Part shown: piece after piece, positions 2,959 through 63,796 of the stretch | Numbering within the stretch: position 1 is the first letter of the stretch | Layout: each line of letters opens with the position of its first letter | Virus record (IMG/VR): IMGVR_UViG_2706794662_000007 | Length of the DNA: 64,000 nucleotides | Direction: 5' to 3' (one strand) | Source: a virus | Lineage: Duplodnaviria; Heunggongvirae; Uroviricota; Caudoviricetes | Program-made: the position numbers and the translations under genes | The notes under the pieces: generated by a model | Databases searched by the model: none | The model's input: only the letters and a program-made list of their open reading frames with translations | Told to the model about the DNA's origin: nothing

Positions 2959-4897
2959 TTACTTAACCTGGTGGCCAGGTTTAGCACCAGCATCCGGGCT
3001 TAACAGGAAGATATCTTTCCCGCCAGGACCGGCAGCCATCACCATGCCTTCAGAGATACCGAAGCGCATTTTACGTGGTGCCAGGTTAGCCACCATAATG
3101 GTGTGACGACCAATCAGTGCCTGTGGATCTGGATAAGCGGAACGGATGCCTGAGAAGACATTACGCTTTTCACCACCGAGATCCAGCGTCAGGCGAAGCA
3201 GTTTGTCAGAACCTTCGACAAACTCCGCGTTTTCAATCAGCGCCACACGCAGGTCAACTTTGGCGAAGTCGTCAAAGGTGATGGTTTCCTGAATCGGTTC
3301 GTCAGCCAGTGGGCCAGTTACCGGTGCAGCTGTGGCTTTCACTTCTTCTTTGGATGCTTCCACCAGTGCTTCCACCTGTTTCATATCGATACGGTTATAC
3401 AGTGCCTTGAACGGATTCACTTTATGGCCCAGAAGCGGTTGCTGGATACCATCCCAGGTCAGTTCTGTATTCAGGAATGCTTCTGCACGTTCAGTCAGTT
3501 TCGGCAGTACCGGTTTCAGGTACGTCATCAGCACGCGGAACAGGTTAATGCCCATAGAGCAAATCGCCTGCAGATCTGCATCGCGACCTTCCTGCTTCGC
3601 CACCACCCACGGAGCCTGTTCATCGACATAGCGATTAGCCAGGTCAGCCAATGCCATGATTTCACGGATAGCTTTACCAAATTCGCGGCTTTCCCATGCT
3701 TCGCCAATCACTTCAGCGGCATCAGTAAAGGTTTTGTACAGTTGCGGGTCAGCCAGTTCGCTTGTCAGCACGCCGTCAAAACGCTTGTTGATAAAGCCTG
3801 CATTACGGGAGGCCAGGTTAACCACTTTGTTCACGATATCGGCATTCACGCGCTGAACGAAATCTTCCAGGTTGAGATCGATATCATCAATGCGCGAAGA
3901 GAGTTTCGCAGTGTAGTAGTAACGCAGGCTGTCAGCGTCAAAATGATTCAGCCAGGTGCTGGCTTTAATAAAGGTGCCGCGAGACTTGGACATCTTCGCG
4001 CCGTTCACCGTCACATAGCCGTGAACAAACAGGTTGGTCGGCTTGCGGAAGTTGCTGCCTTCCAGCATGGCAGGCCAGAACAGACTGTGGAAGTAAACGA
4101 TATCTTTGCCGATGAAGTGGTACAGCTCGGCGGTGGAGTCTTTCTTCCAGTATTCGTCGAAGCTTACGCTGTCGCCGCGCTTGTCGCACAGATTCTTGAA
4201 AGAACCCATGTAGCCAATCGGCGCGTCCAGCCAGACGTAGAAATATTTGCCCGGCGCGTTCGNNNNNNNNNNNNNNNNNNNNNNNNNNNNNNNNNNNNNN
4301 NNNNNNNNNNNNNNNNNNNNNNNNNNNNNNNNNNNNNNNNNNNNNNNNNNNNNNNNNNNNNNNNNNNNNNNNNNNNNNNNNNNNNNNNNNNNNNNNNNNN
4401 NNNNNNNNNNNNNNNNNNNNNNNNNNNNNNNNNNNNNNNNNNNNNNNNNNNNNNNNNNNNNNNNNNNNNNNNNNNNNNNNNNNNNNNNNNNNNNNNNNNN
4501 NNNNNNNNNNNNNNNNNNNNNNNNNNNNNNNNNNNNNNNNNNNNNNNNNNNNNNNNNNNNNNNNNNNNNNNNNNNNNNNNNNNNNNNNNNNCTCTTCGCT
4601 GTGCGTCGAGTGATAGTTGTCATAGCTGATGTTAAAGCCTGCGAAATCAGTCTGATGTTCCTGACTCATTTCGCCAATCATCTGTTCCGGTGTGATACCA
4701 AGCTGCTGTGCTTTCAGCATGATTGGCGTACCGTGGGCATCGTCGGCACAGATGAAATTAACCTCGTGGCCGCGCATTCGCTGGTAACGAACCCAGACAT
4801 CAGCCTGGATGTGCTCCAGCATATGGCCGAGGTGGATTGAGCCGTTAGCGTACGGCAGCGCGCACGTCACCAGAATTTTCTTCGCGACTTGGGTCAT
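2959..4897 (-). CDS. metG: methionyl-tRNA synthetase (interrupted by N-run 4263-4591)
   Basis: N-terminus [29 protein letters not shown] (HIGH motif) and C-terminus ...GAKPGHQVK match enterobacterial MetG as recalled; KMSKS present; ~140 residues hidden in the gap. Confidence 0.95.
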
Positions 4898-5054: not shown

Positions 5055-6155
5055 ATGAGCGAGTCCAAATCGCCGGATGCCCTGAGAGCAATGGTAGCCG
5101 GTACGCTGGCTAATTTTCAGCACCCAACCCTGAAACACAACTTGACTACGCTTAAAGCGTTACACCATGTTGCGTTGATGGATGACACACTGCATGTCGA
5201 ACTAATCATGCCTTTCGTGTGGAATAAGCCTTTTGAAGACCTGAAAGAGCAATGTAGTGGTGATCTGCTCCGTATCACTGGCGCAAAGGCTATTGACTGG
5301 AAGCTGTCGTACAACATTGCCACGCTTAAGCGCGTCAAAAACCAACCAGGCATTAATGGCGTTAAGAACATTATCGCCGTCAGCTCAGGCAAGGGCGGCG
5401 TGGGTAAATCCTCCACAGCAGTAAACTTGGCACTGGCTTTGGCTGCTGAAGGTGCGAAAGTTGGTATTTTGGATGCCGATATCTATGGTCCATCAATTCC
5501 AACCATGCTGGGCGCGGAAAACCAACGTCCAACCTCACCGGACGGTACTCACATGGCACCTATCATGTCTCATGGCCTGGCAACCAACTCTATTGGTTAT
5601 CTGGTCACCGATGACAATGCAATGGTGTGGCGTGGACCGATGGCGAGCAAGGCGCTGATGCAGATGTTGCAGGAAACACTGTGGCCTGATCTGGACTATC
5701 TCGTTCTCGATATGCCACCGGGCACTGGTGATATTCAATTGACGCTGGCGCAGAACATTCCTGTAACTGGTGCGGTTGTGGTAACTACGCCGCAAGACAT
5801 CGCGCTGATCGATGCGAAGAAAGGCATTGTGATGTTCGAAAAAGTCGAAGTGCCGGTACTGGGTATCGTTGAAAACATGAGTGTGCATATTTGCAGTAAC
5901 TGCGGTCATCACGAGCCAATTTTTGGCACCGGTGGAGCACAGAAACTGGCCGAGAAATACAACACGCAGTTGTTAGGCCAAATGCCACTTCATATCTCTC
6001 TTCGTGAAGATCTGGATAACGGAACACCAACCGTTATTAGTCGTCCAGATAGCGAATTTACGGCTATTTATCGTGACCTCGCAGATCGCGTTGCTGCCCA
6101 AATGTATTGGCAAGGTGAAGTAATACCTGGCGAAATCGCATTCCGCGCAGTGTGA
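5055..6155 (+). CDS. apbC: Fe-S cluster carrier ATPase ApbC/Mrp
   Basis: 366 aa, P-loop GKGGVGKSS, CxxC near C-terminus, near-identical to E. coli Mrp as recalled; divergent from metG as on the chromosome. Confidence 0.95.
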   Translation: MSESKSPDALRAMVAGTLANFQHPTLKHNLTTLKALHHVALMDDTLHVELIMPFVWNKPFEDLKEQCSGDLLRITGAKAIDWKLSYNIATLKRVKNQPGINGVKNIIAVSSGKGGVGKSSTAVNLALALAAEGAKVGILDADIYGPSIPTMLGAENQRPTSPDGTHMAPIMSHGLATNSIGYLVTDDNAMVWRGPMASKALMQMLQETLWPDLDYLVLDMPPGTGDIQLTLAQNIPVTGAVVVTTPQDIALIDAKKGIVMFEKVEVPVLGIVENMSVHICSNCGHHEPIFGTGGAQKLAEKYNTQLLGQMPLHISLREDLDNGTPTVISRPDSEFTAIYRDLADRVAAQMYWQGEVIPGEIAFRAV

Positions 6156-6767: not shown

Positions 6768-7286
6768 CTAAAAATCAAANNNNNNNNNNNNNNNNNNNNN
6801 NNNNNNNNNNNNNNNNNNNNNNNNNNNNNNNNNNNNNNNNNNNNNNNNNNNNNNNNNNNNNNNNNNNNNNNNNNNNNNNNNNNNNNNNNNNNNNNNNNNN
6901 NNNNNNNNNNNNNNNNNNNNNNNNNNNNNNNNNNNNNNNNNNNNNNNNNNNNNNNNNNNNNNNNNNNNNNNNNNNNNNNNNNNNNNNNNNNNNNNNNNNN
7001 NNNNNNNNNNNNNNNNNNNNNNNNNNNNNNNNTTTAAAGGAAGATAGGTTCCCCATAGTAGCTGTCTGCCGTGCGCTCGTGTGAAATACCGGGCCATCTT
7101 CGGATTGCTATGCTGCTTAGGAGCGCCTGGTCTGTATGTCTGATACCCGGCCAACATCCCATCAAACCTGTATAGAGGGAATGTAACAACTCCTTCGCTT
7201 TCATCGATCCACTGTCTATATGGATGCACATCATAGCGGTAGTTACGAGTTAGCAAATGAGCTTCCAGCTTTCCAAATTTAGTCAT
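6768..7286 (-). CDS. hypothetical protein, C-terminal part masked by N-run
   Basis: ATG at 7286 with GAGGGA SD; ORF runs into N-run 6780-7032, so the end is unreliable. Confidence 0.3.
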   Translation of the reverse strand: MTKFGKLEAHLLTRNYRYDVHPYRQWIDESEGVVTFPLYRFDGMLAGYQTYRPGAPKQHSNPKMARYFTRAHGRQLLWGTYLPLXXXXXXXXXXXXXXXXXXXXXXXXXXXXXXXXXXXXXXXXXXXXXXXXXXXXXXXXXXXXXXXXXXXXXXXXXXXXXXXXXXXXXFDF

Positions 7287-9338: not shown

Positions 9339-9611
9339 TTAACCCGCAGTGCNNNNNNNNNNNNNNNNNNNNNNNNNNNNNNNNNNNNNNNNNNNNNNNN
9401 NNNNNNNNNNNNNNNNNNNNNNNNNNNNNNNNNNNNNNNNNNNNNNNNNNNNNNNNNNNNNNNNNNNNNNNNNNNNNNNNNNNNNNNNNNNNNNNNNNNN
9501 NNNNNNNNNNNNNNNNNNNNNNNNNNNNNNNNNNNNNNNNNNNNNNNNNNNNNNNNNNNNNNNNNNNNNNNNNNNNNNNNNNNNNNNNNNNNNNNNNNNN
9601 NNAGTTGCCAT
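9339..9611 (-). CDS. hypothetical protein almost fully masked by N-run
   Basis: ATG at 9611 (MAT...) behind conserved junction GGAGAGTGATATG; body is N. Confidence 0.25.
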   Translation of the reverse strand: MATXXXXXXXXXXXXXXXXXXXXXXXXXXXXXXXXXXXXXXXXXXXXXXXXXXXXXXXXXXXXXXXXXXXXXXXXXXXXXXXXXXXXTAG

Positions 9612-19631: not shown

Positions 19632-20225
19632 CTAAGCAGCCTTCTTTGATGGTCTTTTTTTCCTGATCACATTCGCAGGATCATACCCTCCCAGACTTTT
19701 CATGACGTCCAAAGGGATCTTGCTTATAGAGTGCCCAGCGTCCTGACAGAATCCTCGAAAAACAACGAGCATACTGCCACCGGGGTTGATGTTTACTTCT
19801 ACCTGACCCAAATTGACGTCAGGCTCGACAAACGCTACGCGGCCACCAGACAGAATAATCGTCTCATTCGCATACTCTGTTGCACGCTCATACCACTTTG
19901 TATCGAGGGATTGAGGAATTAGCATCACTGTAGTAACTCCGCGAGCCTGCTCACGTATAGCAGCATCAATCCAGGGGGAGATTTTGGAGTAGGGTGGATT
20001 GAGGAAGGCAATTGTACCTGGCTGTCCCCATTCAGATTTCAAAGCATCACGCTCAATGCCTATGAAATTAGGCAGCTTTGCGTTGTCCTTGTTGCAGGCA
20101 ACGTCAACATCAAATGTCACTCCAAGATAACGTTGAATGGCAGAAAACAGCCAATCAGGTGTTCTCCAGAGGTCACGAAGAGAGTTGTCGCGCTTTCGCT
20201 GTTTGATTTTTTCGGCTGCAATCAT
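19632..20225 (-). CDS. dam: phage-type DNA N6-adenine methyltransferase (Dam-like)
   Basis: 197 aa with AFLNPPYS (NPPY catalytic motif). Confidence 0.8.
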   Translation of the reverse strand: MIAAEKIKQRKRDNSLRDLWRTPDWLFSAIQRYLGVTFDVDVACNKDNAKLPNFIGIERDALKSEWGQPGTIAFLNPPYSKISPWIDAAIREQARGVTTVMLIPQSLDTKWYERATEYANETIILSGGRVAFVEPDVNLGQVEVNINPGGSMLVVFRGFCQDAGHSISKIPLDVMKSLGGYDPANVIRKKRPSKKAA

Positions 20226-27423: not shown

Positions 27424-29739
27424 TCAGATTTTGCAGGCTCCGTCGCACTCATCTTCTGGCTCGACGGCTACAGCTTGCGTCAGTGGATTCTGCGGTTCGT
27501 CGTCATCACGCTTTCCTGCCCCATCTCTGGTGTTGTGGTAGTAAAGCGTTTTAACTCCCATCTTGTAGGCGAGAAGCAAATCTGACAGTAGCGTCATCAT
27601 TGGGACTTTATCGCCTTCAAAGCGAGAAGGGTCATAGTTGGTATTGGCCGAAATAGCCTGGTCAAAGAACTTCTGGATGATCGCCACCTTTGTCAGATAG
27701 CCGCGGTTGTCCGGCATATCCCACAGGTATTCATACTGTTCCTTCAGTTTTTCAATCTCAGGCACGACCATCTTAACGATGCCGTCCTTAGAAGATTTCA
27801 CCGACACCGGTCCACGAGGCGGTTCGATGCCGTTTGTGGAATTAGTGATCTGGCTGGAAGTCTCGCATGGCATTTGTGCCGTCAGTGTGGAGTTGCGAAG
27901 ACCGTATTTTGCAATACGTTCACGCAGTTCTTCCCACGGCATCTTTAACTCAAAGTTGGTTTCGCCACTTTCGTCTAATGAAGAACGGTAATGGTCGATC
28001 GGCAACTGACCAATTGCGTACTTGGTCTGCTCAAACCAGTCACACTCACCTTTTGCTTCAGCAAGTTGGCAGCTGGCATCAAGAAGGTAATACTGGATAG
28101 CTTCGAACGTTTCATGCACCAGTTTATTACCAGCGGTATCAGAATAACGAATGCCATTCTTTGCCAGGTAATAAGCAAAGTTGGTTACACCGATCCCCAG
28201 GCTACGACGAGCTTTGGCAGGCACTTCGGCTGCCTCCATCGGATAGTCTTGATAATCCAGTAACGAATCCAGTGCAGCAACGGCATAGAACGCCACCTCT
28301 TTAAGAGACTCCAGTGAACGGATGGCTCCGAGGTTAAAAGCGGATAAAGTGCATAGCGCGATCTCACCGTTCGGGTCGTCGGTAAATGCCAGTGGACGGG
28401 TAGGTAGGGTGATCTCCATACACAGGTTTGACTGGCGGACAGGTGCAAGAGCAGGAATGAAAGCGCCATGCTCATTAATATGATCGACGTTCGCAATATA
28501 AATTCGGCCCGTGGACGCTCGTTCCTGCATCAGAGATGAGAACAGCTCAATGGCAGGTACTGACTTCTTGCGAATTGAATCATCGGCTTCGTATTTATGG
28601 TACAGCTTTTCAAACAGCTCCTGGTCTGTGAAGAAGGCTTCGTACATATCAGGCACATCATGCGGGCTGAACAGAGTGATGTTCTCGCTTCTGACGAGTC
28701 GACGGTACATTAGACGGTTACTCATGACGCCGTAATCAAGATGGCGAACGCGGTTTTCATCAATACCACGGTTATTTTTCACCACCAGCAGACTTTCAAC
28801 TTCAAGATGCCAGATCGGGTAAAACGCTGTTGCTGCGCCACCACGAACACCACCTTGCGAACAAGATTTAACAGCCGTCTGGAAATGCTTCAGGAATGGA
28901 ATAACTCCGGTATGGGTGGCTTCACCATTGCGGATCTCGCTGCCCAGCGCACGGATACGGCCAAAACCAATACCAATTCCAGCACGACGTGAAACGTAGT
29001 CGATAATTGCGGCTGAAGCTGCACTAATCCCTTTCAGACTATCGCCAGACTCAATCAGCACACAACTGGAGAACTGACGGGTTGGAGTACGGACGCCGGC
29101 CATGATTGGTGTGGGCAGAGACAGTTTGAACGTACTTGTAACGTCATAGAAACCTTTGACCATCTCCATACGTGTTTTGCCAGCGCAGTCGTCTTCCCAA
29201 TTCTGGAACAGACACATGCCTACCAGCATATAGATATGTTGCGGCCCCTCATGAATCTCACCAGTAACACGGTTTTGAACGAGGTATTTGCTTTGCAACT
29301 GCACCGTAGCTGCATAGCCAAAAAGATCGTCACGTTTCGGCTTAATGTAATTACCGAGTTCTTCGATCTCTTCAAACGAATAATGTGTCAGCAAATCCTT
29401 GTCATAAACGCCCTTGTTAACGTTCTTGACAATGTGTTGGTAGAAGTTCGGATAGTCGTAACGACCGAAGGCATCTTTGCGGATTTTAAAAATGTTCAGG
29501 CGGGCAGCCACCTGTGAGTAATTTGGTGCTTCTGGTGAGATCAAATCAGCGGCAGATTTAACCAAAGCCTCATGCAACTGGCTGGTGGTCATCCCATCAA
29601 AAATGCTGGCCGCAGCTCCCATTGCTACAGCGGATGCGCTTACACCACGAATGCCTTCTACGCCATACATTACGACGCGGTTGTATTTTTCTTCGGATAA
29701 CGGCTCTGTTTGGCCGTTACGTTTTACGATGCTTATCAT
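27424..29739 (-). CDS. nrdA: ribonucleotide reductase class Ia alpha subunit
   Basis: 771 aa; LPTPIM, TRQFSSCVLIE, SCSQGGVRGGAAT, RVRHLDYGV, terminal DECDGACKI; divergent from E. coli NrdA as recalled. Confidence 0.95.
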   Translation of the reverse strand: MISIVKRNGQTEPLSEEKYNRVVMYGVEGIRGVSASAVAMGAAASIFDGMTTSQLHEALVKSAADLISPEAPNYSQVAARLNIFKIRKDAFGRYDYPNFYQHIVKNVNKGVYDKDLLTHYSFEEIEELGNYIKPKRDDLFGYAATVQLQSKYLVQNRVTGEIHEGPQHIYMLVGMCLFQNWEDDCAGKTRMEMVKGFYDVTSTFKLSLPTPIMAGVRTPTRQFSSCVLIESGDSLKGISAASAAIIDYVSRRAGIGIGFGRIRALGSEIRNGEATHTGVIPFLKHFQTAVKSCSQGGVRGGAATAFYPIWHLEVESLLVVKNNRGIDENRVRHLDYGVMSNRLMYRRLVRSENITLFSPHDVPDMYEAFFTDQELFEKLYHKYEADDSIRKKSVPAIELFSSLMQERASTGRIYIANVDHINEHGAFIPALAPVRQSNLCMEITLPTRPLAFTDDPNGEIALCTLSAFNLGAIRSLESLKEVAFYAVAALDSLLDYQDYPMEAAEVPAKARRSLGIGVTNFAYYLAKNGIRYSDTAGNKLVHETFEAIQYYLLDASCQLAEAKGECDWFEQTKYAIGQLPIDHYRSSLDESGETNFELKMPWEELRERIAKYGLRNSTLTAQMPCETSSQITNSTNGIEPPRGPVSVKSSKDGIVKMVVPEIEKLKEQYEYLWDMPDNRGYLTKVAIIQKFFDQAISANTNYDPSRFEGDKVPMMTLLSDLLLAYKMGVKTLYYHNTRDGAGKRDDDEPQNPLTQAVAVEPEDECDGACKI

Positions 29740-29755
29740 GTATCACCAAATAAAG

Positions 29756-29778
29756 AGGGCCACTAAATATAGTGGCCC
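29756..29778 (-). terminator. hairpin terminator downstream of RuvC-like gene
   Basis: GGGCCACTA...TAGTGGCCC stem. Confidence 0.5.
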
Positions 29779-29812
29779 ATGTTAATAGATAAGCACTTAC
29801 CTATCAATGAAA

Positions 29813-30382
29813 TCAAATGAGAGACTTAAGAACATCGCGCACCTGGCGGAACTGATCTGTTTGCATACCGGTATGGATGGCAGCCACCGCATCAGCCAAA
29901 TGTTCGTTTTTGTTCACGAGAACATCCTGTCCAGATTGCTTACGACGCAGCCACGGTGCTTTAGAGTGTTTTTTCGTAGCCCACTGGATAATCTCTTCTT
30001 TCGATGTAGTAAGTTTATTGCCGACAAAATGCTTGATTTCGTTTGGAGTAACCTGGATCAATGGCTTATCCACACACGCAAGTACACCGATACAAATACC
30101 GTAAGACGTCTGCGAACGAGAGTTTTGGCTCCCAACCGGTAGCTCACAAAAAACCATATTTGCCTTATCAATGATTGGCTTCGCAACACGCCATATTTCA
30201 CTGGCTCGGCGCAGATCGTCACTGTTCACACGAACGGTCTTTTTGTTACTCCCCGCTTTAGTCTCAACAAGAGTAAGGTCGTGAATCTCAAGTTCGTCCG
30301 TTTCAAGGTCTAAAGTGCCCACAGCAAGCCCAAAGTTGCTCATTGAGGGATCAACACCAACTACGCTGATTTTTTTACTCAT
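29813..30382 (-). CDS. RuvC-like Holliday junction resolvase
   Basis: N-terminal VVGVDPSMSNFGLAVG, FCELPVG and HLADAVAAIH resemble RuvC catalytic motifs. Confidence 0.6.
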   Translation of the reverse strand: MSKKISVVGVDPSMSNFGLAVGTLDLETDELEIHDLTLVETKAGSNKKTVRVNSDDLRRASEIWRVAKPIIDKANMVFCELPVGSQNSRSQTSYGICIGVLACVDKPLIQVTPNEIKHFVGNKLTTSKEEIIQWATKKHSKAPWLRRKQSGQDVLVNKNEHLADAVAAIHTGMQTDQFRQVRDVLKSLI

Positions 30383-30391
30383 ATAGTCTCC

Positions 30392-31135
30392 TTACCATGT
30401 TCCCCATATAGGGTTTTCCAATAATCTCGCCTCCAACGAATTGGTTACTATTGCCGTTTGCAACGTTGGTTGGGGAGAGTTTGCAAAGTCTGAATACTCA
30501 TTTTCCTGCGTGACACGTTTATCTACGGCATGTTTAACGCCACTTGCTATGAAATGACGCATGATGCCCAACAGCCTCCGACTGTCTGCACTATCGTTTG
30601 CTAAAACATGCGGGAGCTGAAGTTCGATTTCTACCATTTCTCCATACTTACCAACAAACTGTAGTTTGTCCGCACTGTACTTTTTATCCCTCCTTTGGAT
30701 AAGGAAACCAGTAAAAGCATCACCTGGCGATGCCAAACTATCCACCCGCTTATTGGCAAGTCGAATAAGGTTGGTGAAAGCCATACAGTGATGCGCACCC
30801 ATTCCCCCAAAGAACCCTTCGCTATTAATGTTAAGATCTTCATTTTCATGGGATGCAATAAACCCAGGCCCGACGTTGGGAAGATATCCCCCCTCAACAA
30901 AAGGATTAATCAGGATCGGCGCAATACATCCAGGTGGTAGTGATTTCAAACTTTGCATCAATGGCGTCTCGGATATTAGACCAAGCAACGCGGCAAATTG
31001 TACTCCGTCAATATTGTTGCTGCCCCACAGAATACGTGGAGCCGCACCATTGGAAGTATGCCCATTGATCAGTTTTATCGACTGCATCACTGCAAATACC
31101 TGCAAAAACTGCGAGCGGCTTAATTTAAACGACAT
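30392..31135 (-). CDS. hypothetical protein
   Basis: 247-aa ORF. Confidence 0.45.
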   Translation of the reverse strand: MSFKLSRSQFLQVFAVMQSIKLINGHTSNGAAPRILWGSNNIDGVQFAALLGLISETPLMQSLKSLPPGCIAPILINPFVEGGYLPNVGPGFIASHENEDLNINSEGFFGGMGAHHCMAFTNLIRLANKRVDSLASPGDAFTGFLIQRRDKKYSADKLQFVGKYGEMVEIELQLPHVLANDSADSRRLLGIMRHFIASGVKHAVDKRVTQENEYSDFANSPQPTLQTAIVTNSLEARLLENPIWGTW

Positions 31136-33058
31136 AGCTGCGCCCCTCTTTAACTTCCAGCGTAATAGTTTCCCGGAACCATGACTTCATCTCTTTATGG
31201 GAGATAATCAGCACAGTACCTCGCTCGCGAGCTTTGGACTCCAGAATACCCATGAGGCGTTCAAGACCGGCTGTATCGAGTGCATCGTCAATTTCGTCGC
31301 CGATAAACAAATCGATGTTTTTACTCGCCCGGTTACTAACCAGATCCTGCAATGCCAAAGAACACGCAATGCGAACCTTCCGCTTCTCACCACCAGAGAG
31401 GGTCTGGAACGACTTACTTGAACCTTTCTTCTGCACACTAATGTTGAATTTGTCGCGATACTCACCTTTTTTGGTGACATCCATCGTCGACCACTCAGCA
31501 GTAATATTCCCGTCAGACAACGTATTGAGATACTCGGCAGTGCGTGTATTCAGGAAAGGCGTAACAGACGTCAAAATATGAGAACGCACCCCGGCAGGAG
31601 AGTAGACCTGACGAGCTTTTTCCAATAGCAACGTTTGTTCCTGAATAGCCTTCAACTCATCTTTTAAGGACTTGAAGGTAGACTTACTGGATACCAGGTT
31701 ATCTTCGTGTCTGGCGATAAGAGCAATAAACGGATTAATCTCTTTTGATATACGATCGACCTCAGTACGAGCACGAGTCACAAGAGACTCAATAGCAACA
31801 ATCTCCTTCTCACGATGACGCAAAGATGAGAGTTGTTTCGTAAGCTCTTCAATCCGGGCAATGATAGCCGTTACATCAGGTGTCGTTTTAACAAGGGCAG
31901 ACTCAATGCTTAACGCTTTCTCAAGATTCGTTTTGTGTTTAGCCATTGCCTCTGCAAGTGTCTTCGCCTGACCAATTTCCTGACGTGCTTGTTCAATGAA
32001 ATTCTCCTTCACCGTTGATAGATCTTCTTCGCAGTAGGCTTTGCCACAAGTAGGGCATGGTGATCCCACTTTAGTACCAACCTCTTCTGCTTTGGTCTTA
32101 AAATTACGCGCGCGGTTCATTGCATCAGCCTGACTATTTTCTGTAGCTTTGATGCTTGCCCGAATATCAGTTATCGCACCACGAACNNNNNNNNNNNNNN
32201 NNNNNNNNNNNNNNNNNNNNNNNNNNNNNNNNNNNNNNNNNNNNNNNNNNNNNNNNNNNNNNNNNNNNNNNNNNNNNNNNNNNNNNNNNNNNNNNNNNNN
32301 NNNNNNNNNNNNNNNNNNNNNNNNNNNNNNNNNNNNNNNNNNNNNNNNNNNNNNNNNNNNNNNNNNNNNNNNNNNNNNNNNNNNNNNNNNNNNNNNNNNN
32401 NNNNNNNNNNNNNNNNNNNNNNNNNNNNNNNNNNNNNNNNNNNNNNNNNGATTGTCGACTCCAATTTGGTTTTAACCACATCCATACGTGCGGCAGCTGC
32501 ATTAGCTCGCTCACGAGCAATAGCGTAGGCGCGTGTCAGTCTGTCAACGCCAGCGGCTTCTTCTACGATGGTTTTGAGGTTTTTGTCGGACATTCCAGGT
32601 AAATCTGGCATAGCTTCTTGGCTCGCATAGATGGAAGCCATGAAAACCTCTTTAGATGCACCGATCAGACGCTCGACGAACTCTTGCGTCAGCGCATCTT
32701 TGCCTTTCGTCATATCGCCGTCTTCACCACGAACGATAAGCCGATTTTTGAACTCTTTGTGTTTACGGTGACGAATGATCGCATATCTCTTGCCTTCATC
32801 CTCGATGGTTACTGCAACACGACAGTTCTTTTCATGGTCGGTAGACAACACATCGTCACCCTTCACACCATGAGCTGTTTCGCCATAAAGACACCACATC
32901 AGGCTATTCATTAGCGTTGACTTTCCAGAGCCATTACTTGATGCGGAACTATCATCACTATTAACACCCTGAATGAGCACTAAACCACGCTGATCTAACT
33001 CGACCTCCGCGCTGGCGATAGCCATAAAATTCTCAACCTGGAGCTTTAAAAACTTCAT
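31125..33058 (-). CDS. sbcC: SbcC/Rad50-like ATPase (interrupted by N-run 32187-32449)
   Basis: N-terminal Walker A GSGKST; C-terminal signature LSGGE and Walker B DEIDDALD; coiled-coil middle. Confidence 0.75.
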
Positions 33059-34627: not shown

Positions 34628-35272
34628 TTACAGCGCGTCAGTGGGCTTTTTACGCGCTGCGTTTATGCTTATGACGCCAGCTTTTGGACGTGGGTCAACA
34701 AGGTTAAGCTCTTCTTCGCTGTGGTATTCGAGGTCGAACTCACGTTTTACATGTCTGATGTAGATTGCGGTGAGCAGGCTATCTTTGGTCAGAAAGTGTC
34801 CGTAGGATTTGCGGATCACTTCTTCTACCTTCTCGATTTTCTCACCACCCATACAGAGATGATTAAACCGGCTGTGTTTCCGCAACATTTCGTCTACTGG
34901 GCCTGAGTAAACCTTGTCTACTTTCCCAAAACGGATGATTTTTCCTGTGTCTGCGGATACGAGGCAAATCAGCTTGTCTGGTGATAAACGATCTCGCCAC
35001 GTCACACCTGAACGGAGTGTGTTGAAGTAGGGGGCATCCAATCCGATGATCGGTTTACGAAATGCGAGTAATGGAACGTACCTGATGCAACTGTTTAAAT
35101 GAAAATTCACACCAGCCTTATCAAGTTTAATTCTGGTTTCGTAGATCGGGCACTTCGCCGCTATACCGCAGATGTCACAAAGCAACTTCTGCTTATTCAG
35201 GTTGGAATTTGATTCGATAGTGTAGGAGCCGTCTTCAAGACGACGAACCCAGCGCGTGCGTTTTAGATCCAT
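34628..35272 (-). CDS. hypothetical protein divergent from repA
   Basis: 214-aa ORF. Confidence 0.45.
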   Translation of the reverse strand: MDLKRTRWVRRLEDGSYTIESNSNLNKQKLLCDICGIAAKCPIYETRIKLDKAGVNFHLNSCIRYVPLLAFRKPIIGLDAPYFNTLRSGVTWRDRLSPDKLICLVSADTGKIIRFGKVDKVYSGPVDEMLRKHSRFNHLCMGGEKIEKVEEVIRKSYGHFLTKDSLLTAIYIRHVKREFDLEYHSEEELNLVDPRPKAGVISINAARKKPTDAL

Positions 35273-35350
35273 ATGTCATTTTTCTGTGATTGTTAGCCGA
35301 GGCAACGATAACCCACCAGGTGCGCCGAAGGTAGTAAATGCCTGTTTTAA

Positions 35351-35367
35351 TTATTCACATATCCACA
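35351..35367 (+). promoter_or_regulatory. two tandem DnaA boxes (TTATTCACA, ATATCCACA)
   Basis: match TTWTNCACA consensus immediately left of GATC repeats and iterons. Confidence 0.6.
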
Positions 35368-35371
35368 GGAT

Positions 35372-35431
35372 AGATCCTAATAAAGAGATCCATAGATAGA
35401 TCCTTATATAGATCAAATAAGATCCCCGATC
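35372..35431. repeat. cluster of six GATC sites in five heptamer-like repeats ((T/A/G)AGATC(C/A))
   Basis: GATC at 35373, 35387, 35399, 35411, 35421, 35428; arrangement resembles P1 oriR as recalled. Confidence 0.6.
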
Positions 35432-35472
35432 GCTGTAAGCCGCGCCACGACTGGTCTGAAGTCATGTTCATG

Positions 35473-35573
35473 TATGCTGTCAGCGGTAATTGATAGTCTG
35501 TCAGCGGTTCACCGTATGCTGCCAACTGTTTTTGGTATTCTGTCAGCGGCAAATCAAGTATGCTGTCAGCGGT
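35473..35573. repeat. upstream iteron array: five 15-bp repeats TATGCTGTCAGCGGT at 21-22 bp spacing
   Basis: copies at 35473, 35494, 35515 (degenerate), 35537, 35559; overlaps repA promoter region. Confidence 0.8.
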
Positions 35574-35593
35574 TGAATGACAAAGGTGTCCAC

Positions 35594-36688
35594 ATGTCCA
35601 CAAAAAATAAAAAAGGTAAAAATAACAAAGAAGTAGAAGATAACATCGACAACTTTGAAGAAGGTTCCCTTGAATTGTACACAGGGGAACTTGTCCCTAA
35701 TAGCAACAATACAGTCCAACCAATTGCGTTGATGCGACTGGGGTTGTTCGTCCCCACGCTTAAGGGAACAAAATACAGTAAACGTAACAAGCCAAATGAG
35801 ATCGATGCTTCAAAGGAGCTTGTCCAGCTCGAAGTAGCCCGTTCTGAAGGCTATTCCGATATCAAGATAACCGGTCCTCGTCTCGACATGGATCATGATT
35901 TCAAAACGTGGGTGGGCGTTGTGCGTTCGCTGGCAGAATACGGCGAACCTAACGGTCGTGTCGAGTTAAGCATCACGAAATTTGCTAAGTTTTGTGGCTA
36001 TCCATCGTCACAGATCCGCAAAACACTCCGCGACCGGCTTACAAACAGTCTTTTGAAGATCATGCGTACAACTCTGTCTTTCCAGAGAACGTATGAAGAA
36101 AAGAACGTCGACGGCTCTAACAAGATCTCGCTTCTGATGGTGCACCTCATCAATAGCGTGGACTACAACGAGCAGAAAGATACGGTGGTGTTCTATGCAG
36201 AACCGAAGCTGGCCGAACTATATCGCTTTGACCATAAGGTTCTTTTGCAGTTAAAGGTTATCAATAAGCTACCACGCAAAGAAACAGCACAGGCTCTGTA
36301 CACCTTCATCGAAAGTCTTCCAACCAAGCCTGCGCCGGTATCGCTTGCTCGATTGCGTGCGCGACTCAATTTGAGTAGCAGGAATGTCAGCTCGCAGAAT
36401 CAGACTATACGTAACGGCTTAAAAGCTCTCCAAGATTTGGGCTATCTCGAATACAGCGAGATTAAGCGTGGGCGGTCGATCTATATCCAGATTCACAGCC
36501 GCAATCCAAAACTCAAAGTCGCACCGCCAAAACCTGAAGACATCGAACCCAAAAAACCAGATGAGAAAGCTGGGGAAATTGATGCCAAACAGAACATTAT
36601 CAACAAGATAACCGAACTTTCGCAGAATTTGACGCCTGAAAATATCAAGATGATTGAGATCCTTTCCAATAGTCTCAAACTGCTTTGA
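35594..36688 (+). CDS. repA: plasmid replication initiator RepA (P1 RepA-like)
   Basis: MSTKNKKG start; NSNNTVQPIALMRLGLFVP, DIKITGPRLDMD, ALYTFIESLP, HSRNPKLK resemble P1 RepA as recalled; flanked by iterons on both sides. Confidence 0.8.
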   Translation: MSTKNKKGKNNKEVEDNIDNFEEGSLELYTGELVPNSNNTVQPIALMRLGLFVPTLKGTKYSKRNKPNEIDASKELVQLEVARSEGYSDIKITGPRLDMDHDFKTWVGVVRSLAEYGEPNGRVELSITKFAKFCGYPSSQIRKTLRDRLTNSLLKIMRTTLSFQRTYEEKNVDGSNKISLLMVHLINSVDYNEQKDTVVFYAEPKLAELYRFDHKVLLQLKVINKLPRKETAQALYTFIESLPTKPAPVSLARLRARLNLSSRNVSSQNQTIRNGLKALQDLGYLEYSEIKRGRSIYIQIHSRNPKLKVAPPKPEDIEPKKPDEKAGEIDAKQNIINKITELSQNLTPENIKMIEILSNSLKLL

Positions 36689-37220
36689 TATGCTGTCAGC
36701 GGTGAAATGTATGCTATCAGCGGCTATTTTTCTGAAAAGTATGCTGTGAACGGTTAAAGATATGCTACCAGCGGTATAGTGAGATGAACGTATGCTGTGA
36801 GCGGTAAATCATCTATCACCACTCAATGCTCTGTCATACCTCCCCAGTGGTTACTAACCTCGAAGAGTGCATTCCATATAGGTTTGCGCTCACTAACATT
36901 CTATTGCTATTGCGCTGATTGCTTGTAGTGAAAGGCATTTATTGCCTGCTACTCCCTGATAGAACGTATGCTGTCAGCGGTGTTTTATTGAGGAATTTTT
37001 GTTTGGATATGCTATCAGCGGTAATTAATGGCATATGTCAGACATTCGTATGCTGCCAGCGGTAATTTTGTTCTGGTTATACCCATACCGGTACACATTA
37101 TTCATGCAATGTCTTAAGTATGCTGTCAGCGGTAAAAAATCGAGTAAAGTATGCTGTGAGCGGTGAGATAGACTCTCGATATGCTATCAGCGGTAGTTGA
37201 TTGTGTATGCTGTCAGCGGT
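36689..37220. repeat. downstream iteron arrays: 12 copies of TATGCT(G/A)(T/C)(C/G)AGCGG(T/C) in two clusters (incA-like)
   Basis: copies at 36689, 36710, 36740, 36761, 36791, 36967, 37008, 37049, 37119, 37150, 37180, 37206. Confidence 0.8.
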
Positions 37221-37267
37221 GACGACTATGAAATATGACTGCGGAACGTGCCGCAGTCAGTTTGCAT

Positions 37268-37480
37268 TTAGTGTATTTTCTTTAACAGACCCCAAAGTGT
37301 ACCGGCTTTTGTAGTCAGTTTTCCTGTTTCTGGATCGTACATACGCCATTCACGCCGCTGGTGGACGATATACCCATCTTCACGTTCCAGACGCTCAAGA
37401 ATGCCAGGCTGCTTGAAACCCTTAGCACGCCAGTAGCCGCTTGTTTTCTCGATTTCCAGACCTGCCAGTGTTAATGCCAT
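37268..37480 (-). CDS. hypothetical small protein
   Basis: 70-aa ORF. Confidence 0.35.
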   Translation of the reverse strand: MALTLAGLEIEKTSGYWRAKGFKQPGILERLEREDGYIVHQRREWRMYDPETGKLTTKAGTLWGLLKKIH

Positions 37481-37815
37481 TACCCAACCTCCTTGCAGTC
37501 ATCGAAAAGGTAGCTTTGCTGAGAAGCGTGAACGCCATAGAAGCCCTTGTATTTGTTGTATACGAAGTGGTCTTCTCCGACGCCGGTTAATTTGCCATTA
37601 CGATTTGTGAGATATGGGGATGACAACACTCGATCGTCACGCACAACATAGAACTGGTCGCCGCTGTCTACGACCATCGCTCCATATGGTGCTTTTATGA
37701 CGTCGGTAAGAGCGCCATTCTTAACGTCGGCTACAGACATTTCACACTGATAAACAGTGGTGTCGGCCACAACGATCGAAGAAAGAAACAACAGCGCGAA
37801 TGGGATGGTCTTCAT
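37480..37815 (-). CDS. hypothetical secreted protein
   Basis: 111 aa with N-terminal signal-like segment MKTIPFALLFLSSIVVA. Confidence 0.4.
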   Translation of the reverse strand: MKTIPFALLFLSSIVVADTTVYQCEMSVADVKNGALTDVIKAPYGAMVVDSGDQFYVVRDDRVLSSPYLTNRNGKLTGVGEDHFVYNKYKGFYGVHASQQSYLFDDCKEVG

Positions 37816-42093: not shown

Positions 42094-43184
42094 TTACTCT
42101 TCTACTGACTCGGTGGGGTTGTCTTTTGCTCTTCGGTCGTCGATTGCCTGCAAAGCCGCAATGATTTCAGCCAGTGGCTTCTCCCGATACATCTCGACGA
42201 TCTGCGATTTGGTGTATTTCTTGTCACCAATTTCAACTCGCCCGCTGGCGTTCTTTGGCAGGTATCCTTCTTCCAGCATGTACTCGACGAGCGATTCGAT
42301 AACGTCGAGGCCACGAGTAGGATCGAAGTAGAATTTCCAGGTGCATTTGCCATACGGTGGTGCAACTTTGTTTTTGATGCATTCTGCGCCTACGTCCTGG
42401 CCGATCTTCTCTTTACCATCCTTCATCACCGATGCACCAAGACGGATACGTACAGAAGCGTAGAACTTCGGTGAATCTCCACCTGGAGACGTAGTAGGGT
42501 CGCCAAACATTACACCGATTTTTGTGCGAACCTGATTCAAGAAGATGATGCAGGCGTTGTATTTGCGTGCCCACAAAGCCAGAGTAGGGAAGTTCGCACT
42601 TGTCGCACGAGCCAGTGCCGTATTGTCGTTCATGTTTAGCTGATCTTTGTCTTTGGCAGTGCCTTCAGCCATCTTTTCGAACTTCTCGGCTTTGGAGTTC
42701 GGAACCATAGACGCAAGTGAGTCAGCCACGATACAGATAGGTGCTGATTCAGGAATAAGCTCTTCATCACGTACCAATTTAAGAATTGTGCCGATCAACT
42801 CTACAGAGTCTTCGAAGGTATCAGGCTGCTTGTATACCCACTGACCGTCATCCTCATCTGCATTCAAACCATTGGCTACAGCCAGGCCAACGTCAAAACT
42901 GTTCTCATGATCGAGGANNNNNNNNNNNNNNNNNNNNNNNNNNNNNNNNNNNNNNNNNNNNNNNNNNNNNNNNNNNNNNNNNNNNNNNNNNNNNNNNNNN
43001 NNNNNNNNNNNNNNNNNNNNNNNNNNNNNNNNNNNNNNNNNNNNNNNNNNNNNNNNNNNNNNNNNNNNNNNNNNNNNNNNNNNNNNNNNNNNNNNNNNNN
43101 NNNNNNNNNNNNNNNNNNNNNNNNNNNNNNNNNNNNNNNNNNNNNNNNNNNNNNNNNNNNNNNNNNNNNNNNNNNTTTTGCCAT
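42094..43184 (-). CDS. RecA-like recombinase (interrupted by N-run 42918-43175)
   Basis: IIFLNQVRTKIGVMFGDPTTSPGG...FYASVRIRL matches the RecA core; ATG at 43184 with AAGGAG SD. Confidence 0.75.
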
Positions 43185-61242: not shown

Positions 61243-62539
61243 TGTTGTTTTACCTCCATATGTTGATCGATTTGCTCATGTGTTTCTTTTGTTGTTTCTT
61301 CAAGCAACGCCGCATACACGTCAGTGATCGCTGTTTGTGATGTGGTGCTCTTCTTAACCATGCTATTAATCGTTACACTGTCACGTTTTCGTTTTAAAGT
61401 TCTGGCTTGTTTATTCCGTTCTTCAACCTCCTTAATGAGCGCGGTCATATCTTCGAAATACAGAGATTCTCCTTTACGAATCTCTTCAACCATCATTTTT
61501 AACGCCTTGCATTTGCCTGCTTTGATAGCGGTTGCGCACGACTGGAATGAAGTTCGAGGAAGACGGTTTTCTTTGAAGGCAAGAATGGTGTGCTGGCAAA
61601 CGGAGTAGCTGCAATATGCCGACTCACCGTTTATNNNNNNNNNNNNNNNNNNNNNNNNNNNNNNNNNNNNNNNNNNNNNNNNNNNNNNNNNNNNNNNNNN
61701 NNNNNNNNNNNNNNNNNNNNNNNNNNNNNNNNNNNNNNNNNNNNNNNNNNNNNNNNNNNNNNNNNNNNNNNNNNNNNNNNNNNNNNNNNNNNNNNNNNNN
61801 NNNNNNNNNNNNNNNNNNNNNNNNNNNNNNNNNNNNNNNNNNNNNNNNNNNNNNNNNNNNNNNNNNNNNNNNNNNNNNNNNNNNTAGCAATCCTGACCAC
61901 CTTCCAAGCAAATTCCGCCATTACGCCATCACATGCCTTCCCAGCATCAATAACGATATGCACCAGATCCAACTGGCTTTTGCACATGTCGCAAAGAGAC
62001 GCATACTCACTCTCTCTGATTACATTTACGGCATCATTAGCCCCTTTATTAAGCAAGACTTCCAACAGATTTTTCGGGGTAACGAAATCTGCTTTCAGAG
62101 ATAATGTCTTTTCACCACTTATCGAACGCAAGTACTCTTCGTAGTTATTCTTCATCAAACCGCTGCTGCGCATTGCTAGAACTGCTTCTTGAATGGCCGC
62201 TTCAATAGTTTCGTCGTTTGAAAGACAAAAAACGGTATTTGTGTAGATCACTCTGCCATCAAGCCATGCTCCAACCTGCACTTTAAGACTGAGCGGGTTT
62301 TCTTTGCTAATAAAAACAACTAATGCAGAACGTCGTGCACAAGAAGGTTCACCCCATACGTGTAACTTAACCTTCAGATAAGGTAGCCCCGGTAGCGGGA
62401 TCTCGACCAAACGAGTGGCGATATGATCCATTGCTGTTTTTACCGCTTTTTCAATGATGTCTAGTCGATTGCTCTCGCTGATTTCTAAACCAGTTTTATC
62501 AATGATGTCGCAGGCTAATTTCTGAATTTCGTCTTTCAT
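61239..62539 (-). CDS. hypothetical replication-associated protein (interrupted by N-run 61635-61884)
   Basis: two ORF pieces either side of the gap, between primase and ligase; frame continuity cannot be verified. Confidence 0.35.
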
Positions 62540-62614
62540 ACCAACTCCTAGCTAACAGATGAAAGTATTCTCACAGAAAGATAAGTAATCATCTACTTAT
62601 TTTAAAGGTGATTG

Positions 62615-63796
62615 TTATGATAGAGCCTTAATGCCCAAAACCTTGCTTTGCAACTCCAACTGTTTGGTATACGGTTTTGCCCGATAATAGGCTTTGATAA
62701 TTTGTTCTGGCGTTGCACCGCCCGGGTCGAGTCCTTCCTCACCCAAACACGCAACTTTGACATTAAGACCGATACTGGTCAGTCGCCTGGCTGCGGCCAT
62801 CGTGTTGCGTATAGCTTGCTTTTCACTATCCCACATCATGATCACATTACGTAATCCACGCGCCTTGAGCGTCAGGAACGCGCCCAACTGATCTTCTGCA
62901 TCCTGAGTGGTGTTGCCAGATAGATGCATCCCGAACGTTCCTATTGGCTCCACGTAATCACGTAATGTTTCTTCGTCGAAAATAGCTCGTTTGACCCCCA
63001 TAACATCGAACGCACCCTCACAGACAACTACAGTCTGTTTGCCGACTGCATTATGGCCGTTGTAGAGAAATTTACCTGAAGCTGGAAGCTGCATAGGAAA
63101 GAGGTAGCGGCGTTCTGCTGTACCGGTAATGTCTCGTCCCTGAAATGTCTTCATTACCCCATCCAGATCGTAAACCGGTATCAGTATTCGCATATCGAAT
63201 ATCTGCCCTTTTACCTGATCTGTATACGGATCTACATAAGCGTGCTTGCCTTCGACGCAGTATCGTAGGTCAAAATACTTTGCCATTTCAGGTGATATGT
63301 TTCGTTCAACCAGATAATCTGGAAGACGGCCATCTATAGGAAGCTCGTAATGACGAGGGAGTGCAACTGGCCCCTCTAACTCGACTGTGCTTGCAAGCAC
63401 TAGCTCTTCTTTCTTTGGTGCCCACCCCTGGGAAAGAAGAGCGTTCTGCACATATTCCTCGAACTGTCGTCGTGATTTACCGCTGTAGTGCTTGAGGAAG
63501 ACCAGCTTATTGAACTGAATCTCTTCGGGATGATCACCAGCGAAGCATTTGCCGACGCCACTGGTCAGATTGAAATATACCTTCCAGTTGGAGCTGCCGC
63601 ATACCGGACACTCCTTGATATTCACTTCACGACCGCGAGTACTCACGCCTCCACGTCGATAAACGATACCTTCAGTATCCAACCATTGTTCAAAATCTAA
63701 TTCGGCAATTAGCTCTTTCAGCTCGCTCACGATAATTCCACTTTTAACAGGCAATATTGTGACCAATCTAAATGTTGATATAACATAAAGGCTCAT
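62615..63796 (-). CDS. DnaG-type DNA primase (zinc-binding plus TOPRIM)
   Basis: zinc ribbon CPVCGSSNWKVYFNLTSGVGKCF, TOPRIM VVVCEGAFD and DxD-like MMWDSE; ATG at 63796 with conserved start region. Confidence 0.75.
   Translation of the reverse strand: MSLYVISTFRLVTILPVKSGIIVSELKELIAELDFEQWLDTEGIVYRRGGVSTRGREVNIKECPVCGSSNWKVYFNLTSGVGKCFAGDHPEEIQFNKLVFLKHYSGKSRRQFEEYVQNALLSQGWAPKKEELVLASTVELEGPVALPRHYELPIDGRLPDYLVERNISPEMAKYFDLRYCVEGKHAYVDPYTDQVKGQIFDMRILIPVYDLDGVMKTFQGRDITGTAERRYLFPMQLPASGKFLYNGHNAVGKQTVVVCEGAFDVMGVKRAIFDEETLRDYVEPIGTFGMHLSGNTTQDAEDQLGAFLTLKARGLRNVIMMWDSEKQAIRNTMAAARRLTSIGLNVKVACLGEEGLDPGGATPEQIIKAYYRAKPYTKQLELQSKVLGIKALS

Follow-up and report, generated by a model that had tools for sequence, protein, structure and literature searches.

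Base-level anatomy of a predicted P1/RepFIB-type basic replicon in an SSU5-type phage-plasmid

Organization of the replicon locus

The stretch of viral DNA analysed here (IMG/VR record IMGVR_UViG_2706794662_000007, Caudoviricetes; in the following referred to as the window, 64,000 nucleotides numbered from its first letter) carries a 2-kb locus with the layout of a plasmid replicon. A preliminary description, made from the letters of the window alone, had proposed an oriR/incC-repA-incA arrangement of the P1 type for this locus, and all of its components are indeed present: two tandem DnaA boxes, six GATC sites of which five lie in heptamers, five upstream iterons, a gene for a RepA-like initiator and twelve further iterons in a cluster of five and a cluster of seven (36688-37221). 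The locus is matched at 100% identity by the replicon of plasmid p09EL50 from Escherichia coli O104:H4 2009EL-2050 (NC_018651.1, 60392-62392), a 109-kb circle with which the window is collinear at 96.5-99.97% identity over all non-masked segments. The identical (100%) replicon is also found on several ~109-kb plasmids of Shigella sonnei and E. coli, and that of Escherichia phage PhiR41_1 (host MG1655) is 99.2% identical.

The outer edge of the origin is marked by the tandem DnaA boxes (35351-35367, + strand), TTATTCACA at 35351-35359 and ATATCCACA at 35359-35367, with 1 mismatch each. Since single DnaA boxes occur in the window only at chance frequency (18 found, 14.9 expected) and are thus not enriched, the weight of the tandem pair comes from its alignment across origins, in which it falls on the DnaA site annotated for P1 oriR and on the boxes of the Cronobacter, Klebsiella, SSU5 and RepFIB origins. 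The boxes are followed by the Dam-methylation core (35372-35431, + strand), which is composed of five AGATC(C/A)N heptamers (in order AGATCCT, AGATCCA, AGATCCT, AGATCAA and AGATCCC) and a sixth GATC within CCCCGATCG. The GATC sites, at 35373, 35387, 35399, 35411, 35421 and 35428, lie closer together than anywhere else in the window (6 in 70 bp, compared to a background of 4.1 per kb), and by analogy with P1 the core is the probable site of strand opening and of sequestration by SeqA. Between the heptamers and the iterons lies a G+C-rich spacer, GCCGCGCCACGACTGG (35439-35454, + strand), of which the 11-mer GCCGCGCCACG and, after one variable base, the sequence CTGG are identical in P1, Cronobacter and Klebsiella.

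An alignment of six origin cores (P1, the window, Cronobacter, Klebsiella, SSU5 and one F-type RepFIB plasmid) shows conservation of the DnaA boxes, the GATC positions, the GCCGCGCCACG-CTGG spacer and a CCC(C/T)GATCG element, and at the GATC columns none of the six origins, P1 included, deviates. Two copies of TGTCCACA on the right-hand side (35586-35602, + strand) overlap the ribosome-binding site and the start codon of repA. Their place is taken by ATCCACA in P1 and by TATCCACA in Klebsiella, and the second copy, which forms part of the coding sequence, lacks conservation in Cronobacter; we consider it possible, with low confidence, that they are weak right-hand DnaA boxes.

The iterons share a 13-mer, ATGCTGTCAGCGG, which occurs in 16 copies (≤2 mismatches) within 35474-37219, all on the + strand. 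The chance expectation, obtained by shuffling the window, is 1.3 copies per 64 kb, and none of 100 shuffles reached 20. A further upstream copy at 35516, ATGCTGCCAACTG, is degenerate and brings the totals to 5 upstream and 12 downstream; including its conserved flanks, the iteron spans ~17 bp and reads (G/A)TATGCTGTCAGCGGT(A/G). The five direct origin iterons, which are incC-like (35472-35574, + strand), start at 35474, 35495, 35516, 35537 and 35560 with a spacing of 21/21/21/23 bp, the degenerate copy being the third. The downstream copies, likewise direct and incA-like, fall into two clusters. The first (36688-36806, + strand) begins at the repA stop codon and has five members, with starts at 36690, 36711, 36741, 36762 and 36792 and a spacing of 21/30/21/30; the second (36966-37221, + strand) has seven, with starts at 36968, 37009, 37050, 37120, 37151, 37181 and 37207 and a spacing of 41/41/70/31/30/26. 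On the whole of p09EL50, every copy of ATGCTGTCAGCGG with ≤1 mismatch lies inside the replicon. An inverted iteron-like 13-mer within repA (35929-35941, three mismatches) is at chance level (~0.3 per gene) and was not counted.

The Klebsiella and Cronobacter orthologues have kept the iteron 13-mer and the origin core unchanged, and likewise the number of five upstream copies, at a distance where synonymous sites are saturated. The number of downstream copies varies, with 12 in the window, 9 in PhiR41_1, 11 in Cronobacter and 8 in Klebsiella. In PhiR41_1 (4062-4130 of the compared segment, aligned to 37120-37221 of the window), an 87-bp block with the last three downstream iterons is missing. 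Across more distant lineages the iteron changes, to GATGTGTGCTGGAGGGAAA in P1 and CCACTGTAGAGAG in SSU5, while the origin core stays. Such a pattern would be predicted for iterons that co-evolve with their initiator and determine incompatibility.

The two downstream clusters are separated by a 163-bp iteron-free spacer, which holds another conserved motif, CAGTGGTTACTAACC (36845-36859, + strand), with the palindrome GGTTAcTAACC. In the compared segments, this motif is found once in Cronobacter (2774-2786), twice in Klebsiella (2909-2921 and 2948-2960) and, with one mismatch, in SSU5 (5149-5161), in each case within diverged flanking sequence; it does not occur in the P1 and RepFIB loci that were examined. 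We also considered the spacer as a relic of other iteron arrays and rejected this, as matches of the SSU5 type (≤3 mismatches) and of the P1 type (≤5 mismatches) are both absent from it. The replicon is closed by a G+C-rich hairpin with a 9-bp stem (37236-37259; RNA fold -19.3 kcal/mol, z = -3.9), which is terminator-like on both strands and faces a convergent gene at 37268-37480.

The RepA initiator

The gene between the iteron arrays, repA (35594-36688, + strand), encodes a protein of 364 aa, which is predicted to be an iteron-binding initiator of the P1 RepA/RepFIB family. Profile searches bear out the relationship to Rep proteins that had been presumed in the preliminary description: residues 118-239 match the Pfam family Rep3_N (PF01051, the Rep_3 WH1 domain) with an E-value of 3.9e-9 and 37.5 bits over a cut-off of 22.4, and RepA matches PHROG 775 at 5e-133. 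An NCBIfam scan of the protein gave no match. In tblastn searches, residues 32-309 align with RepA of P1 and of P7 at 43.5% identity (E = 2e-64); in a multiple alignment, the identity of the protein amounts to 45% with P1, 47% with SSU5, 52% with the F-type RepFIB initiator and 85% with the Klebsiella phage-plasmid, and the block N(S/N/T)NNTVQP(V/I)ALMRLG(L/V)FVP is invariant. Compared to the Klebsiella and Cronobacter orthologues, the proportion of nonsynonymous differences (pN) is 0.03-0.10 and that of synonymous differences (pS) 0.70-0.80, the latter being saturated; with the resulting pN/pS of 0.04-0.15, RepA is under strong purifying selection.

The start of the gene deserves a correction. 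In RefSeq, the coding sequence of the initiator comprises 404 aa and starts at an ATG inside iteron 1, so that the 40 additional codons consist of nothing but the iteron array (35474-35593). The start at 35594 has the ribosome-binding site AAAGGTG and agrees with where the P1, SSU5 and RepFIB proteins begin, and the PhiR41_1 record employs it as well; the 364-aa form is thus better supported than the 404-aa form. A second point of annotation concerns the name: PHROGs and several RefSeq phage records (NC_005856, NC_018843, NC_050152) call RepA of the P1 family a 'replication helicase', which is a misnomer for an iteron-binding initiator.

Relationship to the P1, RepFIB and SSU5-type replicons

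In the annotated P1 sequence (AF234172, compared over 61487-62929), a DnaA site, five Dam sites, five incC iterons with the promoter PrepA inside, repA, nine incA iterons and parA-parB-parS follow one another. The replicon of the window shares with it, in the same order, the tandem DnaA boxes, five heptamers, the G+C-rich spacer, five direct iterons, repA and the downstream array. The number of origin iterons is the same, their spacing is nearly so (22/21/21/21 in P1 incC and 21/21/21/23 here), and in both replicons the downstream array starts at the repA stop codon. Because the origin core can moreover be aligned to that of P1 at the nucleotide level, column by column, we regard the layout as homologous to P1 oriR and not merely similar to it. 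Given this alignment to the annotated P1 oriR and the 43.5-45% identity of the initiators, the designation 'P1-type replicon', already used in the preliminary description, stands for a demonstrable homology.

The differences from P1 are nevertheless considerable. The iteron is gTATGCTGTCAGCGGTa here and GATGTGTGCTGGAGGGAAA in P1, and the downstream copies, arranged in two clusters, number 12, compared to 9 in P1. RepA has a basic, Lys-rich N-terminal extension of 31 aa and a C-terminal tail of 55 aa, whereas P1 RepA, with 286 aa, possesses neither. All 5 heptamers contain GATC, compared to 4 in P1, and the leader is shorter. Furthermore, the phage backbone is that of an unrelated siphovirus, and parA-parB-parS does not follow immediately downstream of the array, as the par genes are distant here; the adjacent par operon is a feature of the P1 genome, not of the basic replicon.

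Outside its own lineage, the closest initiator (52%) is that of RepFIB, represented by E. coli D5 plasmid B (NZ_CP010147.1), which has a comparable C-terminal tail and the DnaA-box and GATC-heptamer core in common with the replicon of the window. In contrast to the latter, RepFIB uses other iterons, its G+C-rich spacer is less conserved, and it resides on conjugative plasmids, usually beside other replicons. More than 5000 plasmids in PLSDB encode RepA relatives at ~50% identity.

The replicons of SSU5, pLF82 (Cyrano) and pHCM2 occupy the same genomic slot, between the SbcCD-like and 214-aa genes on one side and the 70-aa and 111-aa genes on the other. Their RepA proteins are 47-48% identical to the one described here, the C-terminal tail of SSU5 RepA is comparable, and the origin core as well as a CAGTGGTTAC-type spacer motif are common to both. 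SSU5 differs in its iteron family, CCACTGTAGAGAG, whose downstream members occur in both orientations, and in having a duplicated origin core, in tandem upstream of repA (3259-3490 and 3640-3900 of the compared segment). One of the SSU5 cores is intact with six GATC sites, in the other these sites have decayed to GAACC/GACCC, and each core is followed by its own iterons. As SSU5-type elements thus differ in the replicon yet are syntenic in the backbone, the replicon module must have been exchanged within the phage backbone.

Plasmid carriage, proposed mechanism and alternatives

The preliminary description had further suggested that the element can persist as a low-copy plasmid prophage. This is supported by its identity to a plasmid and near-identity to a phage, and by its distribution: of 5426 complete E. 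coli genomes, 120 carry the replicon, with 185 occurrences in total, all of them on plasmids and none chromosomal. Many of these plasmid records have been rotated so that they open with precisely the ATG at 35594. In PLSDB, the replicon is found on 143 plasmids, mostly of ~100-115 kb, and 136 of the 143 are non-mobilizable. In pulsed-field gel electrophoresis, p09EL50 appears as a plasmid of ~110 kb (PMC3486847), and the relative Cyrano/pLF82, whose RepA is 48% identical, makes virions and has a copy number of ~5.5 per chromosome (PMC9928086). The production of virions by the present element is presumed; it rests on the near-identical deposited phage PhiR41_1 and on the Cyrano virions (PMC9928086). 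A 72-kb record (NZ_CP024264.1), which we looked at as a natural mini-replicon, is linear and incomplete and retains all phage replication genes.

Genes for partition and addiction had been anticipated outside the window, and p09EL50 does possess them. A 222-aa ATPase of the ParA/MipZ type (93565-94233) and its 117-aa partner together occupy 93206-94233, positions 15049-16397 code for two ParB_N proteins and positions 94552-95350 for an antitoxin-toxin pair, TacA and GNAT; the par genes are located ~32 kb or more from the replicon.

Literature and typing databases already cover the element, its life as a plasmid and its RepFIB/P1-type initiator. A relationship to SSU5 has been described for the 'phage-like plasmid' pECOH89, whose RepA is identical to that of p09EL50 (PMC3999498); in PlasmidFinder, elements of this kind receive the type IncFIB(H89-PhagePlasmid) (PMC12838234); Pfeifer et al. 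assign them to the SSU5 supercommunity of phage-plasmids, which are mostly IncFIB-typed (PMC7969092); and RefSeq already labels the initiator as a plasmid replication protein. The replicon is therefore not new, but the catalogued IncFIB(H89-PhagePlasmid) type of the SSU5 supercommunity.

Taken together, we are confident that the locus is a functional basic replicon, homologous to P1 oriR/incC-repA-incA and to RepFIB, which keeps an SSU5-type siphovirus phage-plasmid of the p09EL50/pECOH89 lineage as a low-copy circular plasmid in lysogeny. Its mechanism can be outlined by homology with P1, whose replication is known from the work of the Chattoraj, Austin and Wickner laboratories. RepA monomers would bind the five in-phase origin iterons and host DnaA would occupy the tandem boxes at the left edge, whereupon RepA and DnaA would jointly open the adjacent A+T-rich region of GATC heptamers, a step that should require Dam methylation. 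Heptamers in the hemimethylated state would be sequestered by SeqA. As in P1, autonomous replication would be expected to depend on RepA, DnaA, Dam methylation and the chaperones DnaK/DnaJ/GrpE. The host DnaB/Pol III machinery, or that of the element itself, would be loaded for theta replication. RepA bound to the origin would repress its own promoter, and the twelve downstream iterons would titrate RepA and pair with the origin iterons, i.e. by 'handcuffing' (Das & Chattoraj 2004, as cited in PMC6312765), resulting in low copy number and incompatibility. Specificity would derive from the iteron sequence and not from the origin architecture, which would permit coexistence with P1, SSU5/pLF82-type and F-type RepFIB replicons.

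Several observations weigh against a functional replicon of this kind. We found no experiment on this exact origin in the literature consulted, and every mechanistic step is for this reason drawn from P1. A scan for consensus sigma-70 promoters detected none on the + strand within the iterons, so that autorepression is putative; by eye, weak candidates for a repA promoter are TTGGTA-18-AAGTAT and an extended -10 element, TGgTATTCT, at 35533-35541. The GC skew shows no switch of polarity at oriR and tracks gene orientation instead. Two tandem winged-helix domains would be expected of an initiator of this family, but searches of the PDB with the single RepA sequence and with a five-sequence profile yielded only chance matches to glyoxalases (E ~1), and a single-sequence AlphaFold model of RepA, with a mean predicted local distance difference test score (pLDDT) of 40, was too poor for a fold search. 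All 17 iterons are direct here, whereas P1 incA comprises 3 direct and 6 inverted copies, and the pairing geometry may consequently differ from that in P1. Lastly, the element encodes DnaE, a DnaB-like helicase and a primase, from which we conclude that a second, lytic mode of replication exists.

Among the alternatives, the one that fares best concerns the twelve downstream iterons, which might not, or not only, exert incA-like negative control, but act as a second origin, as a partition or pairing site, or as a landing pad by which RepA is coupled, via the conserved motif CAGTGGTTACTAACC, to a phage regulator. Their uniformly direct orientation, unlike that of P1 incA, would fit this, as would the arrangement in two clusters around a spacer motif that is conserved in the SSU5 family and absent from P1 and RepFIB, the variable number of downstream copies (8-12) and the duplication of the origin core in SSU5. 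We nevertheless consider it unlikely. The downstream repeats have the sequence of the origin iterons, which makes RepA their expected ligand; their start at the repA stop codon matches P1 incA; they are accompanied neither by DnaA boxes nor by a GATC cluster; and the ParA-like genes are ~32 kb away. A related idea, to which we assign a slightly smaller chance still, is that the SSU5 lineage possesses an extra layer of control with no counterpart in P1. Here, CAGTGGTTACTAACC between the all-direct clusters and the C-terminal helical tail of RepA would offer a phage or host factor a place to dock, and this factor would couple copy control to the decision between lysogeny and lysis or would hand replication over to the DnaE, DnaB and primase of the element.

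That the replicon is an inactive relic, and that the phage proteins DnaE, DnaB-like helicase and primase maintain the element from another origin, seems very improbable to us. It is true that the phage replication genes of the element form a full set, that the skew does not switch at oriR and that the promoter scan remained negative. However, RepA is intact and under strong purifying selection while synonymous sites are saturated; the conservation of iterons, DnaA boxes and GATC heptamers extends across genera; members of the family are without exception extrachromosomal; and RepA is the only plasmid-type initiator annotated on p09EL50. Finally, control by an antisense RNA instead of iterons, as in IncFII or in the p-p47 phage-plasmids with CopA/CopT, has next to no probability: another family of E. 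coli phage-plasmids does use CopA/CopT (bioRxiv 10.64898/2026.08.19.745698), but this preprint on heteroresistance deals with an unrelated 49-kb family, architecture and initiator are of the iteron type here, and we reject such control since no Rfam family matches positions 35000-37600 even at E≤1.

As a basic replicon, the locus explains the inheritance of phage-plasmids that are common in E. coli, Shigella, Klebsiella and Cronobacter, and also their IncFIB typing; members of this family sometimes carry blaCTX-M-15. In the literature consulted, we found no paper that details the iterons of the p09EL50-type family, nor did the word 'iterons' occur in any of the SSU5 or phage-plasmid papers searched, and the base-level map presented here, with its DnaA boxes, Dam heptamers, 17 iterons and corrected repA start, is therefore a modest gain: a useful annotation that leaves current understanding unchanged. 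It also serves as a ready design for mini-replicon and incompatibility experiments.

The wider element and neighbouring genes

On p09EL50, the replicon is surrounded by nrdAB, thyA, dfrA, dam, rnhA, an SbcCD-like pair, dnaE and genes for a ligase, a primase and a tyrosine recombinase, while the head, tail, portal and terminase genes are sited elsewhere on the circle. This content (dnaE, nrdAB, thyA, dfrA, dam, rnhA, ligase and primase) agrees with the published description of the family (PMC3999498). The dam gene (19632-20225 of the window, - strand) encodes an N6-adenine methyltransferase of the Dam family, whose p09EL50 orthologue matches Pfam Dam (PF05869) at 5.4e-38; it is possible that this enzyme supplies the methylation used by the GATC core.

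The origin is adjoined on its left by a divergent gene for a 214-aa Cys-rich protein (34628-35272, - strand; phrog_2105, no Pfam match), the start of which lies 79 bp from the DnaA boxes. By position and length, a gene of equal size (645 bp) occupies the corresponding slot in the SSU5, Klebsiella and Cronobacter relatives. The genes downstream of the replicon are small, lie on the minus strand and have no assigned function.

The window contains seven masked runs of N of ~250-330 bp each (4263-4591, 6780-7032, 9353-9602, 13174-13428, 32187-32449, 42918-43175 and 61635-61884). None of them falls in the replicon; one splits the gene of the SbcC-like ATPase and another metG. The latter is a second copy of the methionyl-tRNA synthetase gene, which together with the adjoining apbC/mrp is carried by the phage-plasmid (~2930-4900 and ~5055-6155 of the window; 28005-31296 of p09EL50). 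The metG segment is only ~93% identical to the chromosomal metG, which is present in all 5426 complete E. coli genomes, and metG copies occur at 220 plasmid places in these genomes. The metG-apbC/mrp segment looks like a pair of housekeeping genes captured from a related species and now widespread in the phage-plasmid family.

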